64,000 nt of DNA from Flaccisagitta enflata (lineage: Eukaryota). The notes beneath the pieces were generated by a model, which saw nothing but the letters and a program-made list of their open reading frames with translations, was not told the origin of the DNA and did no database searches. The position numbers and the translations under genes were made by a program. Position 1 is the stretch's first letter. Every line of letters starts with the position of its first letter. This document shows, piece by piece, positions 29,997 to 55,813 of this stretch. The DNA lies in NCBI GenBank assembly GCA_965153355.1, contig OZ231126.1:9672001-9736000 (forward strand), written 5' to 3'.

Positions 29997-30703
29997 TTCT
30001 CGACCAGGGTCGAGTCTAAGGACGCCGATGTTAAGGGGGGAGATGGATAGGATCTGATAAAACGATAAACACCGCTAATCTAAATCAAATTTTTGGTCTT
30101 ACACGGCCAACATTGGCCAATAAAAAAAACGTTGTAAAAAGCGTGTAAACGAGTAAAAAAGCCAAAGTTAAGATTTAAAATTCAGAGGCGAAAACGCCAA
30201 TTTGCATCAACGTCGGGCGGCCTTATCTGTAAAAGCAATGCAGTTCACCCATTCCGCATCTCAGGGCAATGAATATCGGAGCATAATGCTTGGGATGCTG
30301 AACATCGTCGTTGAAACCGTAGATTTCAAGGCGTTCTAATTGAGTCAACTCGCGCTTGCAGCGGATGCTGAACGGTGGAAGCAACATGTCTTCCTCATCG
30401 CATTCCCCATTCGGTGCTGTTTTCGAATTCGGTGATGTCTTTTGTTTTACTGACTTTCTAAGCGGGTTTTTATTTAGGGTTAGGGGTAGGGTTAGGGTTA
30501 AGGTTGGGGATGGGGGTTGGTTTTAGGGTTAGGGTTAGGGTCAGAGCTATCGTTAGGGCAAGGTGAGAGCTGTGTTAGATACATTTCAACCCGAATCTAC
30601 TCGAATTAAAGCTTCGCCCAAACGGGGAAACCTGATAAAAACAAAAGATCAGTATCGTCTTCGAAATTTTTTCCCATCATTCAACTTGGCGAAAACCTCT
30701 AAG

Positions 30704-31450
30704 CAGAGGTGCCGATTCTGCAAAGCTGCCACGTAGCAAGAAAAATTGAGCCTAAGCTGCCGCACTTACGGCACAAGGCTAAGGGCTATGGTTTTCACAC
30801 TACAGACAAAAGTGAAATACAAGAAGTTAACCCCCCAAAAACTGTAGCACCCCCCCTACAGCTACAACCGCTGAATGAAGATTTGCATGTGAGATGGAGA
30901 ATAGAAGCTTATATCAATACAATTAGCCTCATCAGAGCGATTTTGGAATCTCATTCCCAGTAAAGAGTTACAGCTTAAAAACTAACTAAAATTAACACTT
31001 TTTGAATTATGCTAAAAATGCAATTTTTTACTAGTTTTTTAGCTATAACTTTTTACTGGGAATGAAATTCCAAAATCGCTCTGATGAGGCTAATTGTATT
31101 AATGTAAGCTTCCATTCCCCATCTTATACGTCTTTCTTCAATCTGCGGTTGAGGCTGTAGGGGGGGGTGCTTCAGTTTTTGGGGGGTTAACTTCTTGTAT
31201 TTCACTGTACTTTTTGTCACCCCCCACTTCCATACTACCAGATGTTGTGCTTGTTCCTATGTCATCTAAATAAGATCACTTTGACCATGACGCTAAATTT
31301 TAGCAAGAAACCGCTATTTTCCTTTCTTCCTTTTTTTTCTTTTTTTCTTTCTTTCTCTACCTTTTTTCTGTCTTCCACTTGGCCTGCCGCACTTAGGTGC
31401 TTGCCTGCCGCGTAGCATTGCTACCATGCTACACAGAATCGGCACGTCTG
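30704..31450. mobile_element. hAT-type MITE in paralog B
   Basis: TIRs cagaggtgccgattctg / cagaatcggcacgtctg. Perfect TSD cctctaag at 30696-30703 and 31451-31458. Confidence 0.9.
30811..31206. mobile_element. Palindromic MITE nested inside the hAT MITE
   Basis: agtgaaatacaagaagttaaccccccaaaaactg...cagtttttggggggttaacttcttgtatttcact; the arms pair over most of the length. Confidence 0.8.
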
Positions 31451-33121
31451 CCTCTAAGTACGTGATTGGGTCGCGATACCTATCGTATAAACTCGCCTTA
31501 TTCGAGTAATCGCGAAAATAGGACGAAAAATCGTCTTCGATCATCGGCAAATCGACCGATTCAGGATCAGGCATCTCATCTTCAAAGAGACGGAAACTGA
31601 AGATGCATTCCCTCAACTGTTTCCATCCAAAAAGAGCGGACACATCTGTCTCCCAATAAGCGTAAGAGCCAGAACGAATGCATTCTGCGATAAAACGTGG
31701 ACCGAATAAATCATCGGTTCGGTACTCAATCGACTTGAAAACTTCGATGAGTGGCAGTAGAGGGACTAGTTCCGCAAATCCGATCTTTTCAAGGAGGCGA
31801 GACCACACGATCAGGCTCGTGATGTTACGTAACGGAGTAAAAGCCGATTCCAGGAGCGAGTGCGACTCAAACGGCGAGTGAAAGCCGGTGACAGACACGC
31901 TTTGTAGCTGCCATGTTGTTGGAATCTGGCTTAAATAGCCGCTGAAGTAGGATTCATCAACCACAGCCAATTCGTAAGAGAACAAGGTTAGATGAGAGAC
32001 TTGATCCCAAAGCTGCATGACTTCAGGTAACCTGTCGGCGCAGTAAGGTCGAGAGGTGATGGAGATAGTCAAAGACTCAAGCTTCTGTTTGATTACGCCG
32101 TCAAGATTCAAAGCTTCATCGACCTCATTGTTGAAAAAATCTGAACAGTAATTGGGTCCGCGACGGAATTTTTTGCGAAAAATAAGAATTTTAATTAAAC
32201 GTTGGCGTAAAAGACAACAGATGTATGAAAAAATATAACTAACTTTTTGCATGAATGTCTTACTTTTTGAAAAATCTTTAAATTGTTGACACGGTATTGC
32301 GATAGATCAAACATATATTGACTAATGGCAGATTCGGTTTAAAATATGTGGCAATAAAAAAACTTACCAGTAAATTTTCAAAAAATACATTCAATAACAT
32401 GACAGGCAATTTTTTGACGTTGAAGGTATAAGACTTACCTTGTAATATAGATATGCAGTGAACTAAATACCCACACAATCGAGTGATATCCACAAGCATG
32501 GAGGTGGTTTGAAGATGCAGCCCATGAGTAAAGCAACTTGTTGATCATCAGAAGCATGGTAAAAGACCTCACATGAAATGAAGTAACATTTTGAGATAAT
32601 CAATTTTTGAATAAACAATAGCCAGCAGGTTGATTGCTGGATATTCAATGGGGATATTTTACACTGACAAAGAAATAATCTAGCAGGGTAACATATTGAC
32701 TACAAGGGCAAGATAAATTTAGCACTTCTAACCTTGGATGCTTACTTGAACTATGAGCATGTTATGAGGAGTGATAAGGTCGGTGTCACCAAGGAGAGAT
32801 GGTACCTGATATAAAAGAATGAATGTTTAGAAATAATTACAAATTATAAAACCAATCTGCTCAAACCTACAAAACAAGGTTTTACACAAAAATATATTGG
32901 CCTTTAAAAGAAAACCATAGCTATTATGTATTTACCTCAAGGAAAGGTCCACAATATAGGGGTCTATTATATAACCACAGGACAAGCATCTTGATAAACT
33001 CCATAAGTTGTTGAGGTTGATAAGAGGAAGTTGACGCAAGCAGATAAGGAATAAGAATGAAACAGAGCATGTGGGCAAAGATAGAAGGGAGAAAAGATGA
33101 CTTGAAAGAAAATGTGGGTTA

Positions 33122-34255: not shown

Positions 34256-37200
34256 TCAGTTTTCCTTCTTCACAGACAAATAAATGGGTAAATGATCACT
34301 TTTTGTTAGTGTGTTTAATACACCAAACTGGATAAAGTTGGGGTTAATGTTGGTATAAATATGATCTAAAGTATTCTTTCTTAAATGAGTTGGGCCTGTG
34401 ATAAGTTGTTTAAGACCAAGGGTCTGCATAACTGAAGTAAATTCCTTGGGCATGTTTTCTGGGTTTTTATTAAAATCACCAAAAATGGCCATTTTGGTGA
34501 ATGGATCTGTATTTTCAAAAACTGTTGCAATCAGATTTGCTGCTCCTTTATACACATGAATAGAGCTTTCTGGCATGATGTAAAGAAAGAACAGAATTAT
34601 GTCACGAAATTGTTCATTTTCCTTATAAAAGTTTGGATATTTTGCTGTCACAATGACACCATTTTGAAGCAAGTTTTGGCCAAGATTTTGTGTTAAAGAA
34701 ATCTTTGAATACACAGCAACACTCAAAGATGGACGATCATTGCTAGAAAGATGCATACTAGGCTGACCAAATTCTTTCATTGGCATTGCCTTACCTTCTT
34801 GGAATCGCGTATCAACAATTCCAAAAATGCAACAACCTTTCACATTCCAGTCATTTTCCAGAGCAACAAGTTTCCCAATGACTGACTGGGAATTCATAAA
34901 TAATACTGAATTATATTCATCTTGCATGTCAAACAAGCAAGGCATTGTCACATCCAACTTACTATTCAAGCGTAATCTTTCCATTTCTTGTACGCATCGG
35001 ACATCATGACGAATCTTTGTTTCTGCCAGCCCTTCAGGTCCTAAAATAGAGACATTTGATTTTGAAGGACATCGTGAAAAGGCAACATAATGACAATGAG
35101 ATGTATGCCCTTTTCTATCTGAAAAGTCTACAACAATCTTTGTCAGAGTAGCACCTTGGGTTCTGTTCACAGTGCGAGCCTTGGCAGCTCGTAATGGAAA
35201 CTGTTTTCTTGTAAAATATTTGGACTTACATGGTATTGACTGACGTAAAACCGGCAACCAATTCTTGGGAATTGAACTGTCATACAAAAATTGGTAGGTT
35301 TGACGCCAAAGTCTTCCTACCCTGGCATCTTGAGGATCGACCCAAACTATGTCACCCTTGCTTGAGTTTTTTGTGTATTTTTTGGCAATGCAGGGAGTAC
35401 CATTGGTTATCCCATCATTGGTATCAAGGTTACTGGTAAAGTCATACTCATGGTCAATGGCCAAATTTAGTTTAGCAGGTAGATTCTGCACTTCCCCTCT
35501 TCCAATTGAGGCGATATTGCAATCAATGGTATCAGGAGATACAGGAGCATTTGCTGCATGTTTATCATCAGCTGGTATGACAAACCTGTTCTCAGGAGGT
35601 GCCGATAAAAACCAACTGTTATTGATTGTATCACATCTATCATTAGTTAATGTTATGTAATTAGCATCTGGAATGATTGGGCTATCTCTAGGTATGATTT
35701 GCTCACTTATGTATGTTTTATCAATATCGCCCAAAGGAGCCTCACGCAGTCTATTAAGAAATTGAGCCCATTGCTTTTCATCTCGTTGTCTCATAATTTC
35801 ATCAAGTTCAAACATCTTTATTTCTTCTTCCCAAAGATTAAAAGCCAAAGGCCGACCGTTAATTTGGGAATGAGCATCAATGCTTTGCATTTGCCATACT
35901 GGCCTACCTTTAACAGGAAGTAACTGAAACACATCCCCAACAGCCAAAACATGAACACCACCAAATGGAACATCATCCCGTTCCTTAATTCTACGTAATC
36001 TTTGATCCATATCAATCCACATTTCATTATCCACCATACTGATTTCATCACATATGAGGACTTTTAAGTCACCCAATTTGGCTTGTAACTCTGCTAACTT
36101 ACTTCCTGTAAGTTGCTCTCGCTTTTTTTGAGTGCCAAATGGCATTTTAAACAGGGTGTTAATGGTGTGACCACGAACTTGATGACTAGCCTTTCCAGTA
36201 AAGGCACACTTTACTATGTGAAGAGCTGAATGATCAAGTCCAGGAACACTGTTAAAATACCTTTTAGCTGCTTCGTACAGAACATTGACGGCAGTTGTTT
36301 TTCCAACACCAGCCCCCCCAGATAAGAACCAGAGGATTTGATCACCGTTTGATCCTTGTTTCAATCTATGTAAAAAGAAGTTGACAAATTGAAACTGCTT
36401 CTTATTCAATTTGGCAGCTTCCTTGTGAAAAAAACTTTCAGACCACTCATCATCATAATGATATGATCTTGAAAGTAAAGCACTAGGAATTCGTTCAGGC
36501 AAAGGTAAGTTCTGTTCAGCAACTTGTTGTTGCCTCACACTGTCTCCATGAGCCTGTACAACGCCAGGGGCTAAATCTGCCATAACTAAATTATCCCCAT
36601 CATCATCAGGATGTGTTGTGATATTCTCTAGACCTCGAAATTCAGATTCATACTTTGAGTAAATAGACCGTTGTTGATCGACATAGTCTTTTACTTCTTG
36701 ATAACGCTCTTTATATGTTTCAAAATTTCCTTTCAAATCAGAAATGTTGCGAAAAGGATAAAAAAGCAATAGTAGTTCACGATAATGCTCTTCTTCCTGC
36801 GTCTCAACATTAAAGTTGATGTAACGAATAATTCTTGGTTTCTTTCGTTTGCTTAAACCATTCAATTTAATACAAGAAGCCTCTGATGGAGGTTCATCAT
36901 CATCCACTTGCTCACTCTCTTTTTCTTCAGCAAATTCTTCAGAGGGGTCCATATTCCTAAGTGCTTTGTGATATGAACCCAGCCCATCATAATAAGCAAC
37001 ATATTCAGCCAAGCAAATGTTTTTCAAACTATTTGGTCTCTCCATGTACCGGTCAGTGCTGTTTTTTACAAATATGTCTGTATCTTCATCATCCATATCC
37101 ATATATTCAGATTCAGATTTACACAACTTTGCCGAGTCTTCAGCAGTAGGTATAAAGACTACTGCATTGGAACTGTTGTACAATTGGATACCCAACATAT

Positions 37201-40200
37201 AGTAGGCAGCCTCTTGCGCTCCAGTTTCAACATAATCTATGAATCTATTAGCTATGTGTCTAACTGATGCTTTATGATTCATTTGTTTGAATGCCGCCTC
37301 TTTACTTGCCACACGTAATGTTTCAGAGAGCCCACGTTCCCCTTTAGTTACATAGTCAAGAATGTATGCAGCAGCAGCATAGCCATTTACGACATATTGA
37401 CAATCCATATTAGCCTTCCACACAGCAAGACATTGGGGATTGTAAGAATTGATCCATCTCTGATCTAAAGTTCTTTTCAAAAATACAGTATCAACATGTA
37501 TAGAACTTCTTATGGCATTGATATAATCAATATATGACATGTCTAGATACTTTATGAAATCCAACATGGATTGCATTTTATGATTTTGAGGTTGTTCAGA
37601 CCAATTGTTCAAGGTCTCTTCAATCTTTTTGAAATTAGTCTTGTGTCTGCTCATTTCTTGTAGTTGGGAACTTGTAAGAGGTTTCTCTTTTGTTCCTTTT
37701 TCAAATGGGAGTAAAATTGTAGTTTTGTCCATGGGTGGTTTGGGAAAATTAAAACGACAAACTTTACCTTTTTGGGGGCAAGTGCGAGTGTGTCTGTGAG
37801 TCTGACGAGCTATCAATTGTTTCCGTTCGTCAATGCTTAAGAAAGAAATGTTGTTCAAATCATCAGAGCAAGTGACAAATTTATCTACATAGGCAGAAAC
37901 TTGCTCCTCTGAATCTAAACCCAAGACAGGCGCATCTTTCATCCAAAGAAGACAGTGAAGATGGGGTGATCCACGATTTTGGAATTCAACCCGATAGAAA
38001 AATTCTTTCATTTCACCCAAAGGACCCTGGGGTGAACCAAGAAATTCTGAAAATAAAACACGAGTGCGATGATTAAAGTGCCTAGCACATGTTACTGGAT
38101 CAGCCAAGATCAACCTCTTTTTCTCCTTTGCGTCCATATTTTCAATTTCTGCATCAGTATATTCCTTCTTGTCAATCAAACGTCCCAAATTACGTAGCAA
38201 ATCAGTCCATTGATTTTCAGCTGCAGTAAAAGTACAAAAGAAAGTGGGTTTACCATGAAAACGCATCATGGCAAACAAGTTTTTCTTTATCTTTTCAAAG
38301 TAAGCTGGACTACCCCTAACAGATTTTAGGAATTTGTAGCCCTCATTGTGGTGTAAAATATTTTCTTTATTCAGTTTTAAGTCCTTTGCAGTGTAAGTAG
38401 ACCCATCTTTTTTCACTACTTTTCTTAGAGAAACCATTTCAAGATCAGCCAATAATTTGATCATAGATTTTCGGGTCTTAAAAAATAAATTTTCATGGTG
38501 TCTTGCAAATCTTCTATTCTTATGACGAAGTTCCCACTTACAAATTTTATGATAACTAACAGGTATTTTTGTCTTAGAACGAGGTTTCCCTCCAAAAAGA
38601 CTACAATAAGTCATTTCTTCAGCATGCTTATCCATGAATGGATTTCTTGGTTTTTGATTTTCACTTGGAGCAACAGACAGGATATTATCCCATTTTTCTG
38701 CTCTCTTATTCTTTTTTGAGATACAGCATTTTTCACTTCTAAATCAGATACTAATTCTCTATTTGTTAGCATAGTGGTGAATAAGCCATCAGGGGATGGT
38801 TCCTCCTCACTTGCATGTTCTTCATCATCATCAAAATATGAACTAAAATCGAATAATTTACCCAACCAAGGAAATTTTTTGTTTGCCTTTTCCACCGGTT
38901 TGTCAGTTAAATTATATGCAAACAATAAATCCCTCGTAGTAGCATCAGGCTTTATTGATTGCATTCTCTCGCGCATTTTTTCTGGCTTGAAGCGAACATG
39001 ACATGGGTCACCATTCATTGCAACAACCTGAAAAGTTGCTAAAGCAAAAAGGGCATGATTAAAATAGGGCTGTGAAGTTTGAGGACAACAAACTTTTATT
39101 TTAGGCAGACCCTTATACAGTTTGTTAAGTTGTGCATTTAATTCCCTAACCATTTCTTGCAAATGGCCAGGGAAATGGTTAGAGTCATAAACCACAATAC
39201 ATCTCTCATTTTCGAAAAAATGATGAGAGACAACATAATGACGCGTTTTTGGTAAGTAATGCAACAGAACAGTTTTTTCTGAACTTTCAGGAGGCACAAA
39301 ATCAGGAAACCAATCATCTAGATTGGCGCCTGCACCTAATTGGGCCAAACTGAGAGGTGACAAAAAATGATCAGTTTCAATACTGTCTACAAACATATTT
39401 TTCATCATCAAGTCAACATACTTTTCAACATACTCTACTTCAATGTGTCCTTTTGATTCTATCATACCAAAGGATACAGTTGATGAGTCCTCCTTAAGCC
39501 TTTGAAATTTATCTATTTCATCATTAGAAGGCAAAACTGGCGCAGTTGCCGCTTGTGGACATTCTGAATTAGTCTCTTTATATGATGAAGTAAAGGTTGA
39601 AAAACCCAAGTCATCAAGGCATTCAGTGGTTTCCATCTCAATGTCAGAACCAGAGCTTTCAGAGTCAACAGTCAAAGCTTCTATGCCATCATCTTCAAGT
39701 TCATCTTTAACATCAACAACTTCAAAAGTGTTTTGTTTAACTTTTTTTTCTTCAAGATTAGACGGAGTATCACTAAATGCCTCAGTAAATTTTGGCACAG
39801 AATTGTCAGAACTGTCATTAGATTCATCAAGGTCAATAATGGAAGTCGATATTACATGATCAGTTTCATCATCACTGTCAAGGTTAATTATTTTCAAAAT
39901 AGCAAAATTGCACACCTTCAACTCCTCAAGAGAAAACTCTAAAAGGGCATCATTGATACGAAATCTAGTGCCATGCACCTCCAATTCATAATCTCCACAA
40001 ATGTCAAAATCAAACTTCACACTATCTGGGTCAAGTCCCAAGAGAAAATCCCCAATAGTTAGACTGTTAACAGTACCTTCCAAAGAAAAGACTCTACTCA
40101 AATTTTTAGAGTCCAAAAAACAAAGATCGATGCTATTGTTTATTTCTTTTGATTTTAAGAAGCAGACTGACCCATCATTTATTCCAGCAATATCAGACAA

Positions 40201-43200
40201 TGATTGTTGATCATCCGTCAAATTGATCACACAAGAACCACCACAAAGAAAAGTTGGATTTTTAAGGTCAGATATATGGAGGGCTTCAAGTTTATCTCTT
40301 ATCAATTTAGTTGACGCACCAACAGGCACTTGCAAACAAACAGCAGATTTTTCATTGCCAGGGTAAACGCAAATGTTCAAATTTCTAGGTTGCCCACCAT
40401 TTTGCAGGCTTCTTGGGATTATGTATTGATGGCAATCAATTAAAGAAAAATTATCAATTCCCAATTCAGCCAAAGTTAACAAGTCATCCAAGGATTGCAC
40501 ATGGTCAGCGGTACCCGATGCCCTGCTTGGAGTATAGCTGAAGAGAGTAGAGCAGCGCCCCAGGGCCGATGTCCTGTAGGAACAGTGGTGAACCATTACA
40601 TCCGCTCCTGACAAGGTTGATGGCCTTGAATTGATAATAAACCAACAAGAAGTTGGATTTTTGGGCTGATTTGGGCTTGAGAATTTACAATTTGTTGGGC
40701 CCAGAGGCATTGCCTCAAAGAGGCTGATTTTTTTGAGTGGGTGGGCTTGGAGAGGCTAGGGGCCCACCTTTGAGGCCTCTTGGGACACGTATTGATGGCA
40801 CAATGTAAAGAGGACATCGTCCCTTTGGGGCCGCTGCCCAAAAAGGACTTATCATAAGGAATTGGGTTTTGATCATTTATTTTGTAAAATTGACATGCCT
40901 CCATGCTTGGTATGAACAAACATGGAGAAAAATCACTGAAACTCTTCATAACATTTGCTAGAGCTTCATAGATATCGTAGATGGTAATCTCATCTGGCTC
41001 GCCATCAACAAATACTTGATGACCAGATAGAGGGAGACGCAGCCAAAAGCAACTCTGCTCAAGTTGGTAACTGTGAACAAGATGTACAACGCTACCATCT
41101 AGAATTCCCAAATCCTTAATAGGTTTCTGAGGGGAATGAACAAACAGTTTAATTGCAAGATTAGCATTTCTCAGATAAAAATCATTATTAAACTCATGAG
41201 GTTGAAAAACAGACCTCACCATTTCAACAAGAGAACCTACCGAATCATGAATATTGATGTAGTTAAAGTGAACCCATCTATCAGCATAGCATATTGAAAA
41301 AGACATGGTCTCATCCTTTGCGACCTGCTCCTCTTCTGGAATAGGTTTTGAATAATGGGGCCCAACATTATCATTATTTTCTTGTATAAATTCTTCAGTC
41401 AAATCAGTTTGAAATTGAGAAGGGTCCCAATTTTCATCAAATGTGATTCCCAAATTTTTATATAAGGGTGTGCATGCCAAAGCCTTGGCTGCCTTTGCGA
41501 CTAAATCAGGTCTTATGGTGCTAGATATGTGGGCTTTTTTGTCAGATAGCCTTCGTTTCAGATCCAGACGAATAACCTGGGCCAAACTTTCGTTACAAGG
41601 GACAGTCATTTTAGATCTCAGTGCATGAATCGATTGTTGAGGGTTAGCAGGAACCAAAACCAAATTACCTCTTACATACTTCTCGCCACTAACAGGTTTG
41701 GGATGCATCCAAATAAAGACTTGTCTAGGAGCCAACAAACGCAGTTCTAAATCATTCAATCCTTTCAATTCATCAGGAATATCATTCATGCGCAAATCAT
41801 TCAATGGTGAAAGTGGAGGAATTTTGGCAAAATCATTTTTTGCATTCTTTTTATTCAGATAACTGTAACAAGTATTACAAATGAACTTCATCCCATGCAA
41901 TCGCCGTCTTGCCCCAGAGTAAGGGTAAAACAATTGCTCACAAATTTTGCAATCTAACAAACCCATGTGAAATTTCTTATTAATCAATTTATACATCACA
42001 TTAAAAGTTCTAGAAGCAAAATTACGTTTCTTAGCATATGTTGTTGGATTAGCAAAATATTTCCTTGCATTTCTTGCAAGCTGACGTGCCTGATTTTTTC
42101 TAGCCAATTCATTCTTATAGTATTCTTGATCTTTCCTTTTTTCAGCTTTTTTAGTTCTTTCAACTTCTCTCACATTAGGATCCAACCTTTTCATTTTTTT
42201 TGCCTCTTTTTCTTTAATAAGAAAACTTTCATCTTTTCTTTTTGCTCTCTTTGCTTCTTTTTCTTGAATAAGAAAACTTTCATCTTTTCTTTTTGCTCTC
42301 TTTGCTTCTTTTTCTTGGTTGAGATATTTTTGATCTTTTCTTTTTTCTCTCTTTGCTTCTTTTTCTTGAATAAGAAAACTTTCATCTTTTCTTTTTGCTC
42401 TCTTTGCTTCTTTTTCTTGGTTGAGATATTTTTCATCTTTTCTTTTTTCTCTCTTTGCTTCTTTTTCTTGGTTAAGAAAACTTTTTTCTTTTCTTTTTTC
42501 TCTCATTGCTATGATTTCTTTTTTCAAGTAAGTTTTATCTTTTCTTTTTTCTCGTTTTGCTTCTTTTTCTTGGTTAAGAAAACTTTTTTCTTTCCTTTTA
42601 TTTCTCATTGCTGTCAAATTTTTAAGCCTTTTTCTAAGAGACAAACTAAGCTTGATGTGTGATTTTTGATGCAAAACCAAAAAATTCAATCTGGCAAATT
42701 CCTGACCACAAGTGGTACACTTCCAAATGGATGCTTTTTTAGGGGGAGGTGGAGTTTCTTTTACAGTCTTTTCTTTAACACTTGGCTTTGAATGGACCAT
42801 ATTCTTATGGCGAGTCAAATATCGCTGATTTTTGAAATCTTTTTTGCAAATTTCGCAAGTCTTATTGTTATGAGATCGCTTATGATTTGTCAATGCTACT
42901 TTAGTGTCAGCTACAAACAAACAATTGGGAAAATCACATTTCAGATTATTTTCCTTAAACACTTTATCTTTTTTTGATTGATCAAGCAAATATTTATCCA
43001 TCAGTGAAGATTCCAAAAAAGTTACTAATTCAGGGTGCTTTTTTGAATTGTGCGCATGCAACTCGCGTTTAGATGGGAAGCAGAGATGGCACTTTTCACA
43101 TAAATGCTTCTCCTTCGCACCACCTCTAAGACCTAGAGAATGAATAAATATGACACCATTATGTGAGATAGGATAATCATGCAGGCGAGATTTTGAAAAA

Positions 43201-44729
43201 AGTGGTTTGCTTTTGTGAGTCAAAAAAAAATCTTTTAACTCAAATTGATCAACCAAAAATTGTGTCAGATTCTCTACACTGGCACATTTTCCAATATGCA
43301 AACTAGATCTTTCAAGAGAAAAGGAATCACTCTTCAAGAAAACCTGTATAACTTTTCCACACAGATGAGGAATGTTTGGTTCAGAACTCAAGTTCATATA
43401 ATTGCAAAACGCACACTCAAGATGCCTCTGTAATCGTTTCCCCTTGAACAAAGGCCTCTGGGAAAATTCATGGACCTCCTCATCACAACAATGAGCAACA
43501 CTTTCTGAATTGATATTTCCTGAGCCATAGAGACCAAAGCCCTCAACACCAAAGGAAAAATTATCACCTTTGATGTCAACAGATGATGGCTCCTTTGATT
43601 TACCTTGATTTACCTTGCTAGGGTTGGTTGAAGATACCTGTGGGACAGAAGCCCGAAAGAGACGTTCATAAGGTGGAACATCAATACCACGCTCCTTGCG
43701 CTTCTTCTCTTTCTCTTGCTTCTCTCGTTCTTGCTGAGGGCTTCTGCCAATACCTCCCGTTTTCTTGGGTCTTGGTGATTTTGACCGTGGTTGCGGCAAG
43801 TGGTTGGGCTGAGAAAAACAAAAATTGGGATCGAGATCAGCAGAGGGCCACAACCATTCATTCTTCTTTTTTGTACGTGGCTTCTTCTTCCGAATAAGGC
43901 AGTACTGTTTTACTTTTGCCTCAGACTTGGGAACAGATTGAGCCTTTGCCTTCAAAGGGCCCCTGAATGAAATATCCTGTGAAAGAACGCAATTGTGAAT
44001 AAAGAGATTATTGTTTTGGACAGTCTTCATCCTTGGTTTGACTGTTGGAACAGGAACCTGTGGCTGAAAAGAAAAAGAGCCAGAACTTTTGGGTAAGGGG
44101 GGGAAATCAGAAAGATTGAGAGAAAATGAAGGTCGAGAATTAATGATAAAGTTAACCATTTCTACCTTCCCCTCGTCAGACAAGTGCAAACCATCATCCC
44201 AAAGCAATGATGACCAAATGTGGTCTGATGGTGAGATAACATGACGCACCTTGTTCCCATGGCATGGACAAACTGAAAGGCAGCACTGATAAAGAGAAAT
44301 GGCTTCATTAGTTTTGTCAATCCAGTCTTTATCTTTCATGGTCGAAAAGTGTTCATAGTCACGCTTGGATACTTCTCTGTGAGGAACTGGGGCAAGCACG
44401 ACATTGGCATCAGGATGGCGAGTAGAAAAAAGGTGAAGGTTTGTTCGAGCCACTTTTGCAATTTCCTTCGCTATCATAATAGGGGTGGTTTCTCTGGAGC
44501 GATTAAAATCATTTGCACCAGCCACAACAAATACAAAGTCATAAGATTTCTCATCCATATGAGCATCACCTCTTCCTCCAACACCAAGCAAATCTTCAAT
44601 CGTTTCACCACCATGAGATTCCACATCAAGTGACTTAAGCTTAAATTCTTTAATTAATGCTTTTTTAGCCTCATCTGGAGTTTCTCTCATGAGACTATCT
44701 GAAAGAATTAATCCATCCATCGCAACCAT
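34256..44729 (-). pseudogene. Helentron Rep/Helicase/Endonuclease polyprotein (~3,370 aa reconstructed), broken by one insertion and one frameshift
   Basis: Rep: FFCTFTA, RVEFQNRGSPHLHCLLW, YILDYVTK. PIF1 helicase: GGAGVGKT, ICDEISMV, GDVFQLLPV, QFPL, YVAFSR. EEP: GDFN, LDHIYTN, SDHLP. N-terminal SGNH, Ubl, C2H2, DUF6570-like and Ulp1-like regions. Confidence 0.9.
40480..40844 (-). mobile_element. 365-bp HINE-like element (family A) inserted in the Helentron ORF
   Basis: Matches the repeat starting near 8069 (caagtcatccaaggattgcacatggtcagcggtacccgatgccc). Removal restores the frame YDKS|LTLAELGI. Confidence 0.9.
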
Positions 44730-45063
44730 AAATCATACAAACTTGGTAATGGAAACACTTGACCTGATATTGGATTTGACTGGAGATGAGATTTGAGTAA
44801 GCACTATCAATGAGGCACCAGCGATCAGCGTCCAGATCCTGAAACCAGGTCATATAAATAAATAAATAAATAAATAAATAAAAGGAAATAGAATCATTAT
44901 GTGAGTGATGCATGAAACCACAAGATATTACCTGATTACCATGTAACAGTAAATAGCTATATTAAAAGTTATTCAGAGAAGCTGATTGTCTGCACATTCT
45001 TTACCAATGAATGTGTTGATATATACACCTACCTGGCCACCAGCAAATGAAAGAGAAGGCAAA

Positions 45064-46700: not shown

Positions 46701-47032
46701 ATCGGATCAAAAGCGCCTATAGTACACAACCCAGCCAAATAAACAAAAAAGCAAAAAGTCCATTTTCAAAATGAACACGACAACGACGACGACGACGACG
46801 ACGACACCCACCCGCCTTAAATTATAGTCCGCGTCGGAATGATATTCCGTCGCGGACAAAAAAGGTTGAGATGAAGATCCTTCAAGCGGGTCATTCTGGG
46901 CAAGATAACCTTGAACGCGGCCCAGTCCTTGGTAGTTTCCAACCCCAAAAACATGGAGGTGATTTTCTGCCACCAGCTTGGCTGAGATAGAAGTCGAGCT
47001 GATAGGCAACCAGGCATTAGGTTGTACACATT

Positions 47033-47445
47033 CTGGAAATCAAAAATTTAAGTCATTTGAAAAATGCCAGAGCTAACCAGCTGGACTTAACTAGCTTTTT
47101 TGTTGCGTGCTACTCGACTCTATAAGCAAATTGAGTTATTGAATAAATCTAAACTTTTTGTCAAAGGATATGCTGCCACGATAATTCTACAAATGAATTT
47201 TCTGTTCAGATGTAAGCTATGGGAGATGAAATCCTCCATATCTGACTAGAGGGTGGGCCTAGGCATCTCACAAGCATAATGTTGGCCCCCTCATTATCTT
47301 GTCATATTCTTTAATGAGTATTGCTATGAAAAAATATTTTTGAAAAAGTCCAGCGTTAGGCAATTTAACAGGATTCTATCTATGTAATCTAATTAAAAAA
47401 GCTGGCTAAGATTGGCATTTTTCAAAAATTTGAGCTTTCAACAAC
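47033..47445 (-). other. GT-AG intron with subterminal inverted repeats, specific to paralog B
   Basis: CAG|GTTGTT...TTCCAG|AAT, phase 0 on both sides. Inverted repeats ttgaaaaatgcca..ccagct and agctgg..tggcatttttcaa. Confidence 0.7.
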
Positions 47446-47598
47446 CTGTGTAGTGTTTAGGCCATTTTCATCGCTGCTATGGGCCGGAGCAAGGGGGAGA
47501 CTCTCTAGGTCCCTGCAGTGCTGATCTAAAAACTTGAGGAGTCGCGAAAGTTCAGACTCCTCATGCTTATGTTCATGATTAGGATCATCTTGTTCATA

Positions 47599-48203
47599 AC
47601 CATGCCAAAGAAAAAAATTGCACACTTACCTTTAAATGCATACCAAATCGCTCTCTGTATAGTAAACTGTAAAAAATTGGTGACCGTTAGAAAGATATTC
47701 AAAAATTCTTCAAAACTAGACCAAGCAGAATGCTGTAACTTTTTTTGTTTTAAAATGACAACTAAATGAAGTTAATAACTCCATTTCCCTCAAAACCAAT
47801 CAATCAACCATAAGAATTTTCCTCTTTTTCCTATGTATTAACGTAAATACTGACCTAAATTTAAAAAAATTTATGAGGGAAAAAAAATTTAGAAAATTTT
47901 CTTCAAAATGGCGCCAAGCAGAAATTTGTAACTTAAACCGTTTAGAAGTTATGATTAAATGAAAGAGAAAGGTACAGTTCTAAGGGATGTGTGAAAACGC
48001 TCTTTCTGGCAGTAAGCAGAAGTGACAAATTTACTTCATATCATTGTAATTTTTAAAGTTTTTGAGCTACAACGCTCTGACACCACTCAATTGATAGATT
48101 TTTTGAAGCTCTTTAAAATGCTCACTGATTTTTTATAGTTTCACCTCCTATGAACGAACCAAGAGTCCTCAAAAAGTTGTGCAATTTTTTTTTTTGGCAT
48201 GGT
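47599..48203. mobile_element. TA-flanked MITE in paralog B coding sequence
   Basis: TIRs accatgccaaa..aaattgcac / gtgcaattt..ttggcatggt with TA on both sides. Removal makes paralog B exactly collinear with A. Confidence 0.8.
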
Positions 48204-50574
48204 TAACCATCATCATCAGTATCGTAACATCCAGAATCATCATGTAGGGAGATGAACCCCAAATGAAGAGATTGAAGACATCAAGGCATTGAGGTTGCGG
48301 CATCCAAGTCCGCAGTTTTCCACAATTGGTCAGCCGGTTTGTTTCTCAAATCATCTCCCAGCTTGCTAGATAACTGGTGGATTCCAAAATCAGGAAGACA
48401 ATTAGTCACTCACAAAGTATCGTTAAGGCTCATTTCTTTGCTGTGAATTTTTAAAAATAAAATAACTCAGTAAGGAAATGGCTTCAATTTTACAACCTCA
48501 GAAAAAGTTTACTCGTCCTTAAAAACCAAGGGGTGTAAGTTTCAATAATACAAAGATATGTTCCAATGTAAAATATTACATAGTCAAAGAATATTTAAAA
48601 AATATTATCATTCAACTGAGATGCGATCACGGGACTAGAGCCTAGTGTAAAATGAATCCAAGTGATTTCAGAACCCACCAAATGCCTATTTCTTTTTCTT
48701 ACTTCGTTCTTTCCAAACCAACGACTATGCTGTGAGTAAATGGCTCCGATTTTGAGTATTTGCAAGGTTGGGTAGTTGAGCAAAACATGCTCAATATCTA
48801 AATAGCTCAGCACCGCCAATTCCAAATGTGCCAACTGAGACACGACTGTGGGATGAGAAGCACGAGTAGAGTGAATCGGAATGAGACCGCGAGATATTGG
48901 CTCGTGGCAAGCGCAAATCTCCATGTCGAGGATGAGATGCTTTAAAGAACTGCCGTCGGCGATTTGGCAGATGCGTCCCAGCCAACATGGAACGGAAGCT
49001 CGCCAATAACGCGCATTTGCCGCCGGAATGAAGACCTTCAATTTCTCCAATTCTGGACAGACTCGAAATAACGCCTTTAATCCATCGGTGGTGGGCTCAT
49101 AACCGCGCGGTAAAGTGAGAGTTGTAAGTTGATTTAGACCAGCTTCTGCGATCGTCTTGTCGAAAAGATCACGCTTTAGAGGGTCCCAGTCCAAGGTGGC
49201 TCCGGATAAATCCAAATCTCGCAATTGGGCATTGGAAGCGAGGATGCTTTTAATCTGCATCAAGGGAAACGCGTCATGCACTTGGTTAACTTCAGCACCG
49301 GCGGGCATTTGAACGGGAAAGGAGCTAGAAGTCAGCTTCACTTTGTCGATCCCGGAGAGGTAGACGAAATCATCGATCGAACCGTCTTCATGGCAAATGT
49401 AGTTCTGCCCCAAATGTAAAGAGCGCCATCTCGGTGAAGCCATCAAATGACTTCGCCATCGACGACAGACGCCAGCGCAACGAAGAATGTCTTCCAACGA
49501 AAGGAAATCGAAAATGGCGGTCAAAACGAGGTCTGGGAGTTGGTTGGCGGCGGACACAATGTCTGAATCTTCATTGGCCATCGAAGAGGTAGAGATGTCG
49601 GAAAGGCTTAAAGACTTTATTTTGAAATATAGAGCGTAATCTAGGTCGTCGTAGAATGCCAGGATGGTGTCGCAATTGTTATCAACTGTCGAGTTGGAGG
49701 ATGGATCGGAAAAGTCGTTGCTTGAAAATTCATCCTCGGAACTAACTTCATCGGACGTTGAATTGAAGATGTTGAGAAGGTAGTTGGCCATGGACATGAC
49801 TTCTGTTTGAGGTAGGTCTCCGCCACCCTCTGCCATCGGTATGGTAGAAATTCTATGGTGGTGGCTGGCTTCAGACATTTCGAGACTGTTTTCATGTTTG
49901 TTCATGAGATTCATATTGATAAAAAGGTACCTTCAGCCATTAGGGCTAATGATAAACGAAAAGGAAGTCGGATAAAATTTCAACCCAAAATGTGGACCAG
50001 GAGAAATCAATAAAACATGATTATAACATAAATGAACGCTATCTTATGATCATAAGCTATTCTTTGCGGTCTGTACTTTATTGTTGTAAACTTACTATGA
50101 AATGAACTTTAATTCCAAAGCTTTTTGCAACGAAATGAGTAAAAAAATGATTTTGCTCCAAAGGCAAATGATCCCTTTTTCAGGGTGTCGATGGCGAACA
50201 CAGACGTCAAGAAACCATCGGGGCCGGGGCACTACTTAGGAATTAGAACAAGAGAGCCACAATGGCAAAGCTTCTTGGAAACACGTGAGGATTAAAGACA
50301 GAAATGATCCACACATCGGCGATTCTGTTTCCGGGCAAAAATAAGTGAAGTAAAACAGAAGGGGGAGGGGGCGAGCTGATAAAATGATAAAAAATACAGT
50401 AACCCGGCGATACAATATCGTTGCGGACGGATGGGCAAGGGGGCACGACCCCGGCCCCTTCATACACATAAAAAGCAAAAAAAAAAAAAAGAAACTTCTT
50501 TTAATAAAATAACATGAGACGCGTGAAATCGAATAGACTGTCGAAACTTAGACTTTAGAGAAAAATAAAACGCG

Positions 50575-53500
50575 TCAACGCGAATCCGCTTCATCTGATC
50601 TGAAAACGCAATGCAGTTTGCCCATGCTACATCTCAGGGCAACAAACACCGGAAAATACTGATAGGCCAACTCGGTGTAAGAATTAAACCCGTAGATTTG
50701 GAGCCGTTGCAAGTGAGTCAACTCGCTCTTGCATCGTGAGCTCAATTCAAGAAGCAACCAGTCGTTGTGCAACTTGACAAAATGCTGCAGGTATTGGATC
50801 TCTCCCGGTTTCCTTTGTTCGTTGATGTCATACATGTAATCTTCAAACAGGTTAGGGTCGGTCCTTGACCTCATCAAGATGGGCTGATCGCCATCCGCCA
50901 TCTCCCATTCGCCGACGCACAAACTGAAGGTGCATTCTCTCAATCGTTTCCATCCCAAGAGAGAAAGCAGATCCGCCTCTCTTAAGGATAAAGCGCCAGA
51001 CTGAATCGATTCCGCGGAGTGACGCGGACCAAAGACATCTTCATCTCGAAACTCGATCGACTTGAAAACTTCGATGAGTGGCAAAAGTGAGACGAGTTGC
51101 TCAAATTTCATCTTTTCGAGGAGGCAGGACCACAGGACCAAGCTTGTGATGTTACATAGCGGAGTAAAAGCCGATTCGATGAGCGAGTGCGACTCCAATG
51201 GATGGTGATAACCGGTGAAGGTCAAACTTTGTAGCTGCCATGTTGTCGGTATTTGACTGAGAACCGTGCCGAGACAAACTTTTTCGTCATAAGCCAGCTC
51301 GTCAGAGAACATGGAAAGATGGGACACTTGATCCCACAGCTTTAGGACTTCCGGTACCCTGTCGACGCCGTAGAGAGTGGTGAAGAGAATTGTCAGAGAC
51401 CCGAGCCTCTGCTTACTGATGCCGCTGATATCCAATTCCTCATCGACCTCGTCAAAAAAGAGGCTCAGATAAAGATGCTTCAAGCGCGTCATTCTGGGCA
51501 AGATAACCTTGAGCGCGGCCCAGTCCTTGAGGGTTACCAGCGCCAAAGTCAGGGAGGTGATTTTCTGCCACCAGCTTGGCTGAGACAGCAGTTGAGCTGA
51601 TAGGCAACCAGGCAATATGTTGTAAAGATTTGTCAAGTCTATGCCGTTTTCTTTGTCCCCATATGCCGGAATGAGGGAGAGACTCTCCAAGCCCGAATAG
51701 TGCCGATTTAAAATCTGGAGAAGTCGCGTAAGGTCAGATCCATCATGTTTTAGTTCGTGATCAGAATCATCAAGTTCGGAATCATTGCGATCAGGATCGT
51801 CACAATCGGCATCATCATGCATGGAGATGAACCCCAACTCGAGGGATTGAAGAGGGCGAGGCGTTGAGAATGCGGCATCGAACGCAGTGACTGCAGTTTT
51901 CCACAGTTGGTCGGCGGTTATATTTCGAAAATCATCTCCAAGCTTGTTGGATAAATGGTGGATTCCAAAATCAGGGCAAAAAAACTAAAAATTTGCATAT
52001 TGCCTATTTTAGTTGCATGCATGTGACTATCCAACTGTCTGTTAGTCCGTCGGTTCATCCACTTAGCTTTTTTGGCATGTACGAGCGGTGTTTTTGAGTT
52101 ACTGCCCCTGCCCTAATGTTTAATAAGGCTATTTCATCACTGGCCCTGCCCAAATGAACGCGACATGCGTAGCCGTGCATCCAGCCTAGTTTTTGTCAAA
52201 TTATCATAGACTCACCCAGGTGCTCCGATTTCAGCCAGTTGTCTACATGATAATAGATAAAATTCTAATTGCCTAAAACAGTATCTAATATTTCCAACAC
52301 TGATTCTAGAACCCACCGAGTGCCACTGTCTTCCTTTGTTCATCCCCGGCCAAAAGGAACGACCCGAGTAGACAGCTCTGATTCTAAGCGTTTGCAAGGA
52401 GGGGAAGTTGTGCAAAACTTGTTCGACATCCGCGTAGCTCAACACCGCCAACTCCAAATGCGCCAGCTGAGACACGATCGCGGTACGAGACGCAGAAGAG
52501 GATACGGGCAAATCAACCAGAGGGCGAGAAATACGCTCATTGCACATCTCGATGTCGAGGCTGAGATGCTTCAACAAACTACCGTCGGCGATTTGAAAGA
52601 TGTTTTCGATCCATGGCACAACAGAAAATCGCCAAAAACGCGCATTCGCCGCCGGAATGAAGACCTTCAATTTCTCCAATTTTGGACTGACGCGGAAAAA
52701 CGCCTTCAGTCCATCTTTAGTTGGTTCGTAGCCGCGTGGCAACGTGAGACTTGTCAGCTGATTTCCCCCGGCTTTTGCGATAGTGGTCTCAAACTCCTTG
52801 CGGTCATGTGGGCGCCAATGCAGAGACGCGCCGGATAAATCCAAGCTTCGCAACTGGGCGCATGAAGTGAGGAAGCTTTTAATTTGCCTCAAGGGCAATG
52901 TGTCATCGAATTCTCTATAACGACCAGGCACATGAATGGGAAAGGAAGTGGTGGTCAGCTTCACATTATCGATCCCGGAGAGGTAGGGGAAATCATCGAT
53001 CGAACCTAGGACCACCAATAGTCAATTTTCACTAGTTGTTCATCGAAATACCGGATGCCATATTCTACTTATTATCAGCGGATTTATATTCTTGTAACAT
53101 TTCTTTCATTACATTGAAAGTAAATTTTCATTACTCATTGCTCTGAAACAGTACAAAATCCCTATACAGTAATTAACTATTGCTGGTCCTAATGAATCAA
53201 ACCGTCTTCATGGCAAATGTAGTTTTGGCCCAGTTGGAGAGAGCGCCATCTGGGTAAAGTCGTCAAATGATTACGCCATCGACCGCAGACGCCGGCGCAA
53301 CGGAGGAAGTCTTCCAACGGCAGGAAATCGAAAATGACGGTCAAAACGAGGTCAGGAACTTCGTTGACTGATGCAATATGACAACGAGGTCGGCCGTCTT
53401 CGTCGAGGTACGCGTCTGCTGCTTTTGCGGCTTCCTGGAAGGAAAGTCCTTTGATGCGTTCCTGCAGCGTTTGTCTTACATCGACCGGCATCTCTCGGAG

Positions 53501-54280
53501 CAGCATTTCTGTTTTCATGCAGGGATGTATATAGTTCCGTGAACTTTGATTAATTGTCCCTTTCCTGCCTTTGGTTTCCTTTAACAGTGTTTTTAAGGTA
53601 TAAATAGTATTAAATTGTGTCTTACTAATCAGTTTTAAGATTTGGTACTGCCAACAGTTTTATTTTCCCCAAACTTTCCTTTTTTTCTCTTTTCCCCCTT
53701 TGATTTCCTTCCCCATCTCCAAACCCTTTGATAAATTAGAATGTGGAACTATATACAGGCCTTTTTTGATGTCTTCGAGGGTGACGCCTTTCGTCTTTTC
53801 TTCCAGAGCTGCGGCGTATTGTGACGGTTTTTGTCCGTCTCTTTTGAACCCGTCGATGAAGACTGACGCTTTCTGTTGTTTGGACGGAGCTTGTTCTCGC
53901 CGGAGGTGGTCACCTTCCGTCATTGAATTGGTAGAAATATCGGAAACGCTTAAGAACCTTAAGGGCATTGACATTGACCTGGGTTTAAACTCTAAGGAGT
54001 AATCTAGGTCGGAAGATTCTAAATTAGATGCGGCATTGGATTGGGTTGCGTCATCGGAGAGGTTGTTGGTTGCCGACATGTTATCTGAATCCTTCTCATC
54101 TGTTGAATCGGTGGAAATGTCTGACTGGTCGTTAGCTGAAGAAGTGGTCTCGGGAGAATCTTCACCATCGGCGGGAAGGCAGATGGCTGCTGAGAAGACT
54201 TCAGGAAGATCTCCATCGACATCGTCAACGTCGGCCGTCGACTTCGATGGGATAATTGGGGGAAAGCCGACGGTCGACAT
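50575..54280 (-). CDS. F-box/LRR-like protein, paralog A, apparently intact if the MITE at 53520 is spliced out
   Basis: Exons ~54280-53761, 53508-53203, 53005-~52317 and ~51984-50575. F-box VPDLVLTVIFDFLPLEDFLRCAGVCGRWR followed by LxxLxL repeats. Confidence 0.8.
53007..53191. mobile_element. TIR element making up almost all of intron 53006-53202
   Basis: TIRs taggaccaccaatagtcaatt / aattaactattgctggtccta (19/21). Flanking direct repeat atcgaacc / atcaaacc (7/8). Confidence 0.8.
53520..53763. mobile_element. hAT-like MITE in paralog A coding sequence
   Basis: TIR core tgtatatagttcc (53526-53538) / ggaactatataca (53745-53757). Flanks ttttcatg / ttttgatg (7/8). Confidence 0.7.
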
Positions 54281-54645
54281 TTAGCTTTCAGGAGAACTTA
54301 GTACACTCATTTGTTTTCGTGAGAACATGCTTTTTTTCTCAGGCTCTGTGTTCTTAGTTCTAGTTCGATTTTAGGCTCAAAAAGTTCTTTTTATCTTCTT
54401 TTTTTCCAATCGCCTCCTTGTACTTGGTACTTACAGAGGTTTATACAGGAATGGTGATATATCTTATTCTCATCCACATCTGAGCCTCAATGTTCCTTTA
54501 AACAATGTTCTTAGTCAACAAATGAGTGTAATGATCAGCCGCAGAATCTATCGAGACGTGACATCGACGAGATGATTCTAGCAGTCAGAACCGAACCGTT
54601 TGTACTGGGATAAAATCAAGATCTAACCAAAATGTTAATTCGTCC

Positions 54646-55813
54646 TAAAACAAGAAAAAAAAGCTTAAAAACAACAGTCCTCGACTGTAGTCTATTTGGT
54701 GTCCGACCCGGCTACTCAGTCTGACCCGGCTACTCAGTCTGACCCGGCTACTCAGTCTGACCCGGCTACTCAGTCTGACCCGGCTACTCAGTCTGACCCG
54801 GCTACTCAGTCTGACCCGGCTACTCAGTCTGACCCGGCTACTCAGTCTGACCCGGCTACTCAGTCTGACCCGGCTACTCAGTCTGACCCGGCTACTCAGT
54901 CTGACCCGGCTACTCAGTCTGACCCGGCTACTCAGTCTGACCCGGCTACTCAGTCTGACCCGGCTACTCAGTCTGACCCAGCTACTCAGTCTGACCCAGC
55001 TACTCAGTCTGACCCGGCTACTCAGTCTGACCCGGCTACTCAGTCTGACCCGGCTACTCAGTCTGACCCGGCTACCAATTGCATACCTTAAAGTCCAAAA
55101 AAAAAAAAAATTTTCAAAAAAAAATTTTTTTTCAAAAATTTCAAAAAAAATTAAAAAAAATTTCAAAAAAAAAAAAAAAAAAAAATTTTCAAAAAAAAAA
55201 AAAAAATTTTTTTCAAAAAAAAAAATGTCTCAAGTCCAAGAAATAATGTTACTAGATACATCATAAATACCCTTATATTTTCTTAACCAATACTCAGAAT
55301 CTACTGAAATCTTGCAGGGGAGCTTAAATTGATGCAATGAACCTTCACAACAAGTTTGAACATTGGTGAACCTTTACTACCATTCCCCTATGTAAATTGC
55401 ACAAGTCCAGGAATTAATATTACTAGCAAAATACCCTTATATCTTCTAAACCAATACTCAGAATTATCTGAAATCTTGCAGGGGAGCTTTAATTGATGCA
55501 ATAAACCTTCACAACAAGTTTGAACAACATTGGTGAACCTTTACTACCCTTCCCCTATGTAAATTGCACAAGTCCAGGAATTAATATTACTACAAAAATA
55601 ATAGGCAAAGGGTATTAAATATTTATGAATGTTGTTGAAAGTTGGTACACAGGTTAGTAATGCCCTAAAAATAACACTGACCAAGTTTTATCAACATCTG
55701 AGTTGTGGTTCTCAAGTTTTTAAGGGTTGACACGACAACAAACGACAACGACTCACTACACGATCAAGGCTATGTTATAGTCCTCGACGTAAACTGAACG
55801 TCGAGGACAAAAA
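54646..55813 (-). mobile_element. Intact HINE-like element, family B, with about 20 copies of the 18-bp repeat
   Basis: Same sequence as 10664-12290 plus 29045-29078. Hairpin gtcctcgacg..cgtcgaggac plus A-run at the right end. Confidence 0.88.

Follow-up and report, generated by a model that had tools for sequence, protein, structure and literature searches.

The locus described here raises the question of how a coding exon that reads without a break in one of two neighboring genes came to be interrupted, in the other, by an intron bounded by an inverted repeat. The two genes, A and B, are tandem F-box paralogs on the minus strand, and the insert in question is intron 2 of gene A. An empty site, the ends of an element, a duplicated target and an exact RNA junction together constitute direct evidence of how transposons create introns, and this locus offers all four lines within one window (the whole 64-kb stretch of DNA analyzed) in an abundant marine organism. 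[quoted passage not shown]

Anatomy of intron 2 and its surroundings

The features of gene A and of its second intron are collected in Table 1. When joined, the four exons form a single 960-codon frame, whereas 39 and 51 stops occur in the two remaining frames; exons 3 and 4 are open across 684 codons. Around intron 2 the frame reads GQNYICHEDG and then LIH followed by a stop, and SIDDFPYLSG picks up 197 nt on, with SIDDF at 53003, so that the exon junction is 53203/53005. The stop met when intron 2 is retained is a TAG, the first three letters of the 5' arm.

Table 1. Features of gene A, of its intron 2 and of paralog B (positions within the window).
Feature	Position	Strand	Remarks
Gene A, whole	54280-50575	minus	start ATG 54280, stop 50575
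Gene A, exon 1	53761..54280	minus	start ATG at 54280
Gene A, intron 1	53509..53760	minus	252 nt, GC..AG; RNA joint 53508->53761
Gene A, exon 2	53203..53508	minus	F-box domain: Pfam PF00646 (E 1e-07), PF12937 (E 3.5e-07)
Gene A, intron 2	53006..53202	minus	197 nt, GT..AG; from sequence and X6 RNA contig
5' flank-repeat copy GGTTTGAT	53196..53203	minus	last exon G + donor GT; 7/8 against 52999-53006
4-nt spacer TCAT	53192..53195	minus	separates 5' flank copy from 5' arm
5' inverted-repeat arm TAGGACCAGCAATAGTTAATT	53171..53191	minus	arm pair 19/21
3' inverted-repeat arm	53007..53027	minus	last A (53007) is the A of acceptor AG
3' flank-repeat copy GGTTCGAT	52999..53006	minus	first G completes acceptor AG; rest is exon 3
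Gene A, exon 3	52317..53005	minus	protein P0003 96% identical
Gene A, intron 3	51943..52316	minus	374 nt, GT..AG; RNA joint 51942->52317; counterpart in B 48362-48678
Gene A, exon 4 and stop	50575..51942	minus	end of 960-codon frame
Paralog B, open frame	48595-49932	minus	uninterrupted at site homologous to intron 2

The preliminary description of this DNA had reported a 197-nt GT-AG insert in A at a site where B reads CHEDGSIDDF unbroken, with inverted-repeat ends that match at 19 of 21 positions, and the sequence bears out both statements. In the inverted-repeat comparison the arms are 21 nt each and complementary at 19/21 positions. Taking the best arm pair near the sequence ends as the statistic, none of 20,000 composition-preserving shuffles of intron 2 reached 19 matches (the largest value was 18); among real 197-nt tiles of the window, 1/658 reaches 19 matches and 3/658 reach 18. 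Two occurrences of the 15-nt arm core are present in the window where 0.14 would be expected, and the outer edge of the 3' arm lies one base short of the end of intron 2. When folded as RNA, intron 2 forms a long terminal stem (-52.6 kcal/mol, z = -3.4), and 0/200 shuffles were as stable. From arm to arm the element measures 185 bp; it is short, non-coding and has inverted-repeat ends, and the frame of gene A holds stops inside it. Over the 197 nt of intron 2, G+C is 32%.

Both splice sites are composite, as had been claimed from the sequence. The donor GT is supplied by the 5' copy of the flank repeat (G|GT), and the acceptor AG consists of the last A of the arm and the first G of the 3' flank copy. 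The accompanying claim of an 8-bp target duplication survives in part. The match stands, as GGTTTGAT and GGTTCGAT are identical at 7/8 positions, but this holds only with a 4-nt offset at the 5' arm, and the adjacency of the repeat to that arm is lost to the intervening TCAT. Accordingly, 185 and 8 sum to 193 and not 197, the missing four letters being TCAT. The 8-mers that directly abut the arms are identical at 4/8 positions and the directly abutting 12-mers at 9/12. By a hand estimate the chance of the flank repeat alone is about 0.02-0.05, and it is only weakly beyond chance because three of its eight matches (G|GT) are favored by the splice consensus anyway. The inverted repeat is thus the strong signal of the insert and the flank repeat a suggestive one.

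Near the two ends of gene A's intron 1 lie the arms of a perfect 13-nt inverted repeat, TGTATATAGTTCC and GGAACTATATACA; 0/3000 shuffles reached this length. This intron sits in an A-specific coding segment of about 95 residues that is missing from B and from a further family member, P0002. Directly upstream of gene A, a near-perfect tandem array with an 18-nt unit extends over 54645-55266 and translates as SRVRLS / LTRLLS.

The window is eukaryotic DNA. Apart from the F-box family it contains a CEP76 gene whose introns are very long, a Ty3/gypsy element and giant frames of Helitron-like type. The CEP76 gene extends across about 25 kb (5331-30074, minus), with one exon at 29082-30074 and the next recognizable exon at 10200-10628. 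Between these exons lie the Ty3/gypsy element (15959-22821), a 1083-aa frame whose family was not recognized (24096-27347) and a foldback (13536-14999) with 707-nt arms at 95%. The three successive giant frames, of 1495, 714 and 1378 aa, occupy 34259-44732 on the minus strand and carry Helitron_like_N, PIF1 helicase, endonuclease/exonuclease/phosphatase, DUF6570 and GDSL-lipase-like domains as well as C2H2 fingers. They look like a seemingly intact Helitron/Helentron-type element beside the truncated paralog B. A third paralog, C (30226-32258, minus), retains the C-terminal half only. It is broken by about 1 kb, especially at 30811-31206 and 30470-30545, where CCCTAA telomere-like repeats are found together with a foldback whose arms of 46 nt are complementary at 98% (82% for its inner arms of 158 nt); the break is either a transposon-filled intron or a mark of a disrupted pseudogene.

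Splicing in RNA and the insert in DNA

Four sequencing runs (X1, X3, X6 and X18) were compared with positions 48100-54400, and DNA matches below 95% likeness were excluded. The runs matching this stretch comprise one labeled with an organism, together with marine metagenomes and metatranscriptomes. The RNA junction 53203/53005, which had been proposed as a check, is joined exactly in one contig of metatranscriptome X6, from a source population about 2% different. This contig (record 22; 461 nt, depth 13.7, 9 differing letters, about 98% alike) spans 53485-53200 and 53002-52828, skipping 197 nt. Its joint is placed at 53002->53200, and shifting the cut by +3 gives 53005/53203, where plus-strand CT..AC corresponds to minus-strand GT..AG. 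Since GGTT fits on either side of the joint, five registers are possible, among which only 53203/53005 is canonical. The X6 depth of 3.25 in the bin 52953-53163 equals that of its 50 exon bases alone, and therefore nothing lies inside intron 2. Furthermore, X6 represents mature mRNA, because its contigs also join across introns 1 and 3 and reach a poly(A) end; a poly-T loose end of an X6 contig places the poly(A) site near 50376, about 200 nt past the stop of gene A. In this one contig, from a population whose DNA at the site was not seen, the insert is removed from the transcript as a spliceosomal intron.

In DNA of the labeled organism (X1), one 836-nt contig crosses the site with the insert kept, and the joined, insert-free form was found nowhere in this DNA run. 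Depth over the element in X1 (150.1) is that of its single contig and matches the flanks (145-186), so that near-identical copies (at least 95% likeness) are unlikely. Inside intron 2 the X1 contig has 24 extra letters behind 53151 and substitutions at 53091 and 53162, with unchanged arms; the interior of intron 2 differs in length among individuals. Within intron 1, the stretch at about 53690-53732 has a summed X1 depth of 422,002 (bin 53586-53796) against about 150 in the flanks, and intron 1 therefore includes part of a very high-copy repeat. At 52742-53374 DNA run X3 is without depth, hence it shows neither the insert nor an empty allele, and from the raw poly(A) RNA of the labeled organism (X18) no reads were placed with about 6% of the run read, which makes it no test of splicing.

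Origin of the insert

Paralog B reads ICHEDGSIDDF without a break at 49395-49366 (wider reading, GQNYICHEDGSIDDFVYLSG) and contains one copy of GGTTCGAT, at 49383-49376, identical to the 3' flank copy of A. Removal of the 197 nt from gene A leaves exactly B's GACGGTTCGATCGATGATTTC. The statement that splicing restores the protein exactly is thus confirmed, as spliced A equals uninterrupted B across the site. Only A and B span this site, since paralog C is without that part of the gene. In B (46859-49932, minus) the N-terminal frame is intact and the C-terminal half is present as fragments at 48394-48209, 47595-47443 and 47044-46859. The X6 RNA shows no depth over 48311-49787 of paralog B, which is possibly a decaying copy.

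The divergence of the two genes bears on the age of the insert. Between A and B, dN is 0.23, dS is about 0.68 and dN/dS is 0.33 (286 well-aligned of 325 aligned codons); amino-acid identity over the 325 codons is 61.5%, and 49/85 4-fold sites are identical. The shared intron (A 51943-52316, B 48362-48678) is alignable only at its first ~16 and last ~30 bases. If the arms were older than the duplication and had been free to drift, they should match at about 12/21 positions (58%), and a hand calculation puts the probability of at least 19/21 at about 0.001. Arms matching at 19/21 against near-saturated A-B neutral sequence thus argue that the insertion is younger than the duplication, unless selection holds the stem. 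B keeps the downstream shared intron and is therefore not a retrocopy. Additionally, a significant terminal inverted repeat is present in each of the two introns confined to A: one matches at 19/21, the other is perfect over 13 nt (0/3000 shuffles). In the shared intron the terminal repeat is 7 nt only, a length reached by 182/3000 shuffles in A and 242/3000 in B. Gain in A after the A/B duplication is thus favored over loss in B, by a divergence argument drawn from two copies and no outgroup.

Searching the protein database with exon 3 (length settings 'longer' and 'near') yielded three matches. P0001 is a near-identical allele of B, P0003 is a frame of genomic DNA corresponding to A's exon 3, and neither crosses A's junction as a spliced product. 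P0002 (813 aa) runs through all three intron sites, but its 2,752-nt contig may be DNA or RNA, and it was set aside for polarity.

The anatomy of the insert, its exact removal from RNA, its absence from paralog B and the intact 960-codon frame would be accounted for if, after the tandem A/B duplication, a short non-coding element entered A within a coding exon, a short way downstream of the F-box. Such an element would have been 185 bp long, MITE-like with 21-nt TIRs and of the cut-and-paste type, and its transposase-mediated insertion at GGTTCGAT would have duplicated the target. The 5' target copy would then provide the G|GT donor, and the element's last A with the first G of the 3' copy would provide the acceptor AG. 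By taking out the element and one target copy (197 nt), the spliceosome would restore the mRNA letter for letter. Pairing of the arms in the pre-mRNA would probably draw the splice sites together.

An insertion of this kind has to be weighed against a staggered double-strand break closed by error-prone repair with capture of a filler. In that case the 12-nt repeat (9/12) would be fill-in, the filler would be hairpin-forming or transposon-derived, and no transposase would be involved. A target duplication of 12 nt is an unusual length among cut-and-paste families. The abutting repeat reads best as 12 nt (9/12), which lies within the 4-12 bp range given for Daphnia in PMC4202315; the element appears to be single-copy and no transposase was seen. 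However, repair leaves unexplained a 19/21 inverted repeat whose outer edge falls at the 3' boundary of the insert, and the 3/12 flank mismatches represent more decay than the 2/21 of the arms. We regard break repair as unlikely. Quite unlikely, in our estimation, is an intron older than the A/B duplication that was precisely lost from B, by cDNA recombination or by deletion between the flank repeats, with selection keeping A's ends paired. Two copies span the site, hence parsimony gives no polarity; B looks decayed, with its fragmented C-terminal half and no X6 depth over 48311-49787; and the unusually stable terminal stem is what a functional structure would lead one to expect. Against such a loss, B has retained its downstream shared intron, the arms are 90% matched where A-B neutral sequence is near saturation, and a flank repeat is not predicted. 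Moreover, cDNA-mediated intron loss usually removes 3' introns first.

The RNA junction could also be read in a way that leaves the insert unspliced in the genomes that carry it, with the joined RNA coming from an insert-free population and gene A here ending after the F-box at the TAG of the arm. X6 is indeed a metatranscriptome about 2% off the window whose DNA at the site was not seen, X3 is without depth at 52742-53374, and X18 gave no reads. Such a reading is nonetheless highly improbable, given that 684 codons are open in exons 3 and 4 with an A-B dN/dS of 0.33, and that the window and X1 both hold the insert. The decay of arms and flanks (about 10%) exceeds the difference between X6 and the window (2%), so the insertion should predate their split, and GT..AG is the sole canonical register among the five. 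Post-duplication insertion of a TIR element thus remains the reading that we prefer.

Family membership and known systems

The preliminary description further held that the intron arose by the mechanism of introners and that introns in this genome are generated by hAT-like MITEs. As applied to this single intron, the mechanism is probably correct. A family is not supported, given the single-copy X1 depth and the lack of further copies in the window. Across the 64 kb, blastn run with word sizes of 7 and of 11 returned no match to the element above chance level, and the 15-nt arm core with at most two mismatches gave just the two arms in the window. The suggested search for other introns with the same ends likewise returned no further copy within the 64-kb window. 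A match to the 21-nt arm pattern in metagenome contigs (L001) and one in viral contigs (L002) proved to be the same 66,280-nt contig and were rejected as chance, because a single arm was present with no partner in dense sequence of 37% G+C. The arm 8-mers were absent from the supplementary text of PMC12130899 (12 of 14 files) and of PMC9860276 (one file), a weak result since these files may not list consensus sequences.

The hAT label is not supported either, as TCAT separates the 8-nt repeat from the 5' arm and no transposase was seen. Pfam detected no cut-and-paste transposase in 55 of the 96 window frames of at least 110 aa, the other 41 overlapping scanned ones. The insert departs from the hAT pattern of an 8-bp duplication flanking the arms, although secondary decay could account for the offset. 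The hAT terminal motif is YARNG; the arm start TAGGA agrees at 4/5 positions, which is too short to weigh. Maize Ds, a hAT element, is a case of de novo intron formation.

That MITEs generate introns in this genome is an unproven extrapolation from one gene, in which intron 1 likewise has a significant terminal inverted repeat. Taken together, the insert is probably a solitary MITE-like intron gain whose mode of action is that of known introners; the element seems to be an old, isolated one and not part of a recently active family. We also considered that a marine eukaryote is gaining introns genome-wide, now or recently, from inverted-repeat elements, the 185-bp unit being an old member of an introner family new to its host group. 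This wider reading was prompted by the inverted repeats of both A-specific introns, by their lack in the sole ancestral intron and by a window dense in foldback and MITE-like elements, and we hold it to be doubtful. The locus prompts the question of whether terminal inverted repeats occur in lineage-specific introns but not in shared ones.

By the definition in PMC9860276, an introner family comprises four or more similar introns within one genome, located at sites that are not homologous. As described in PMC9860276 and PMC11282704, TIR/TSD elements that draw a splice site from their target duplication occur in Micromonas, Symbiodinium and many other, mostly aquatic eukaryotes, and according to PMC12130899 about 82% of the introners that could be classified with confidence are TIR elements. 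Since the mechanism is already documented across many eukaryotes (PMC9860276, PMC12130899), the locus adds one example, illustrative unless a family is found.

The closest systems are the introners of Symbiodinium microadriaticum and the 'complex cases' described by Gozashti et al. 2022 (PMC9860276), and IE1 of Micromonas pusilla (PMC11282704). As reported there, these introners share with the insert a short non-coding body, inverted ends, a donor GT from the duplicated target and a partly element-borne acceptor, as well as unchanged mRNA length after splicing and an aquatic host. In contrast, they form families of at least four and often hundreds to thousands of members, whereas one copy of the insert is known, at single-copy DNA depth. 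Their flank repeat is 3-4 nt, while that of the insert measures 8 nt and is offset by 4 nt, or measures 12 nt, and the acceptor AG of the insert is, unlike theirs, split between element and target.

Other new introns resemble the insert in part. The neointrons of Daphnia pulex, attributed to staggered double-strand breaks, have 4-12 bp direct repeats of terminal exon bases (PMC4202315), and the insert is similarly a probable new intron bordered by such a repeat. The main text of that paper has 0 occurrences of 'inverted repeat' and of 'transposable element', whereas the insert is bounded by a 19/21 inverted repeat. The nonconventional introns of euglenids and the introns that arose from MITEs in Fritillaria borealis, as described in PMC11282704, have TIRs and TSD-like repeats, as the insert does, and their paired ends join the splice sites, as those of the insert probably do. 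The borders of these introns are non-canonical (AG-AC, AG-AT or variable) and their removal depends on machinery that is altered or unknown, while the insert is plain GT-AG. Finally, singular transposon-derived introns are known in many eukaryotes (PMC11282704). As described, these one-off introns involve the same tolerated insertion into an exon, with splice signals at the edges of the element enabling its removal. A one-off transposon insertion into an exon, tolerated by way of splice signals at its edges, is the category that fits intron 2 of gene A best.
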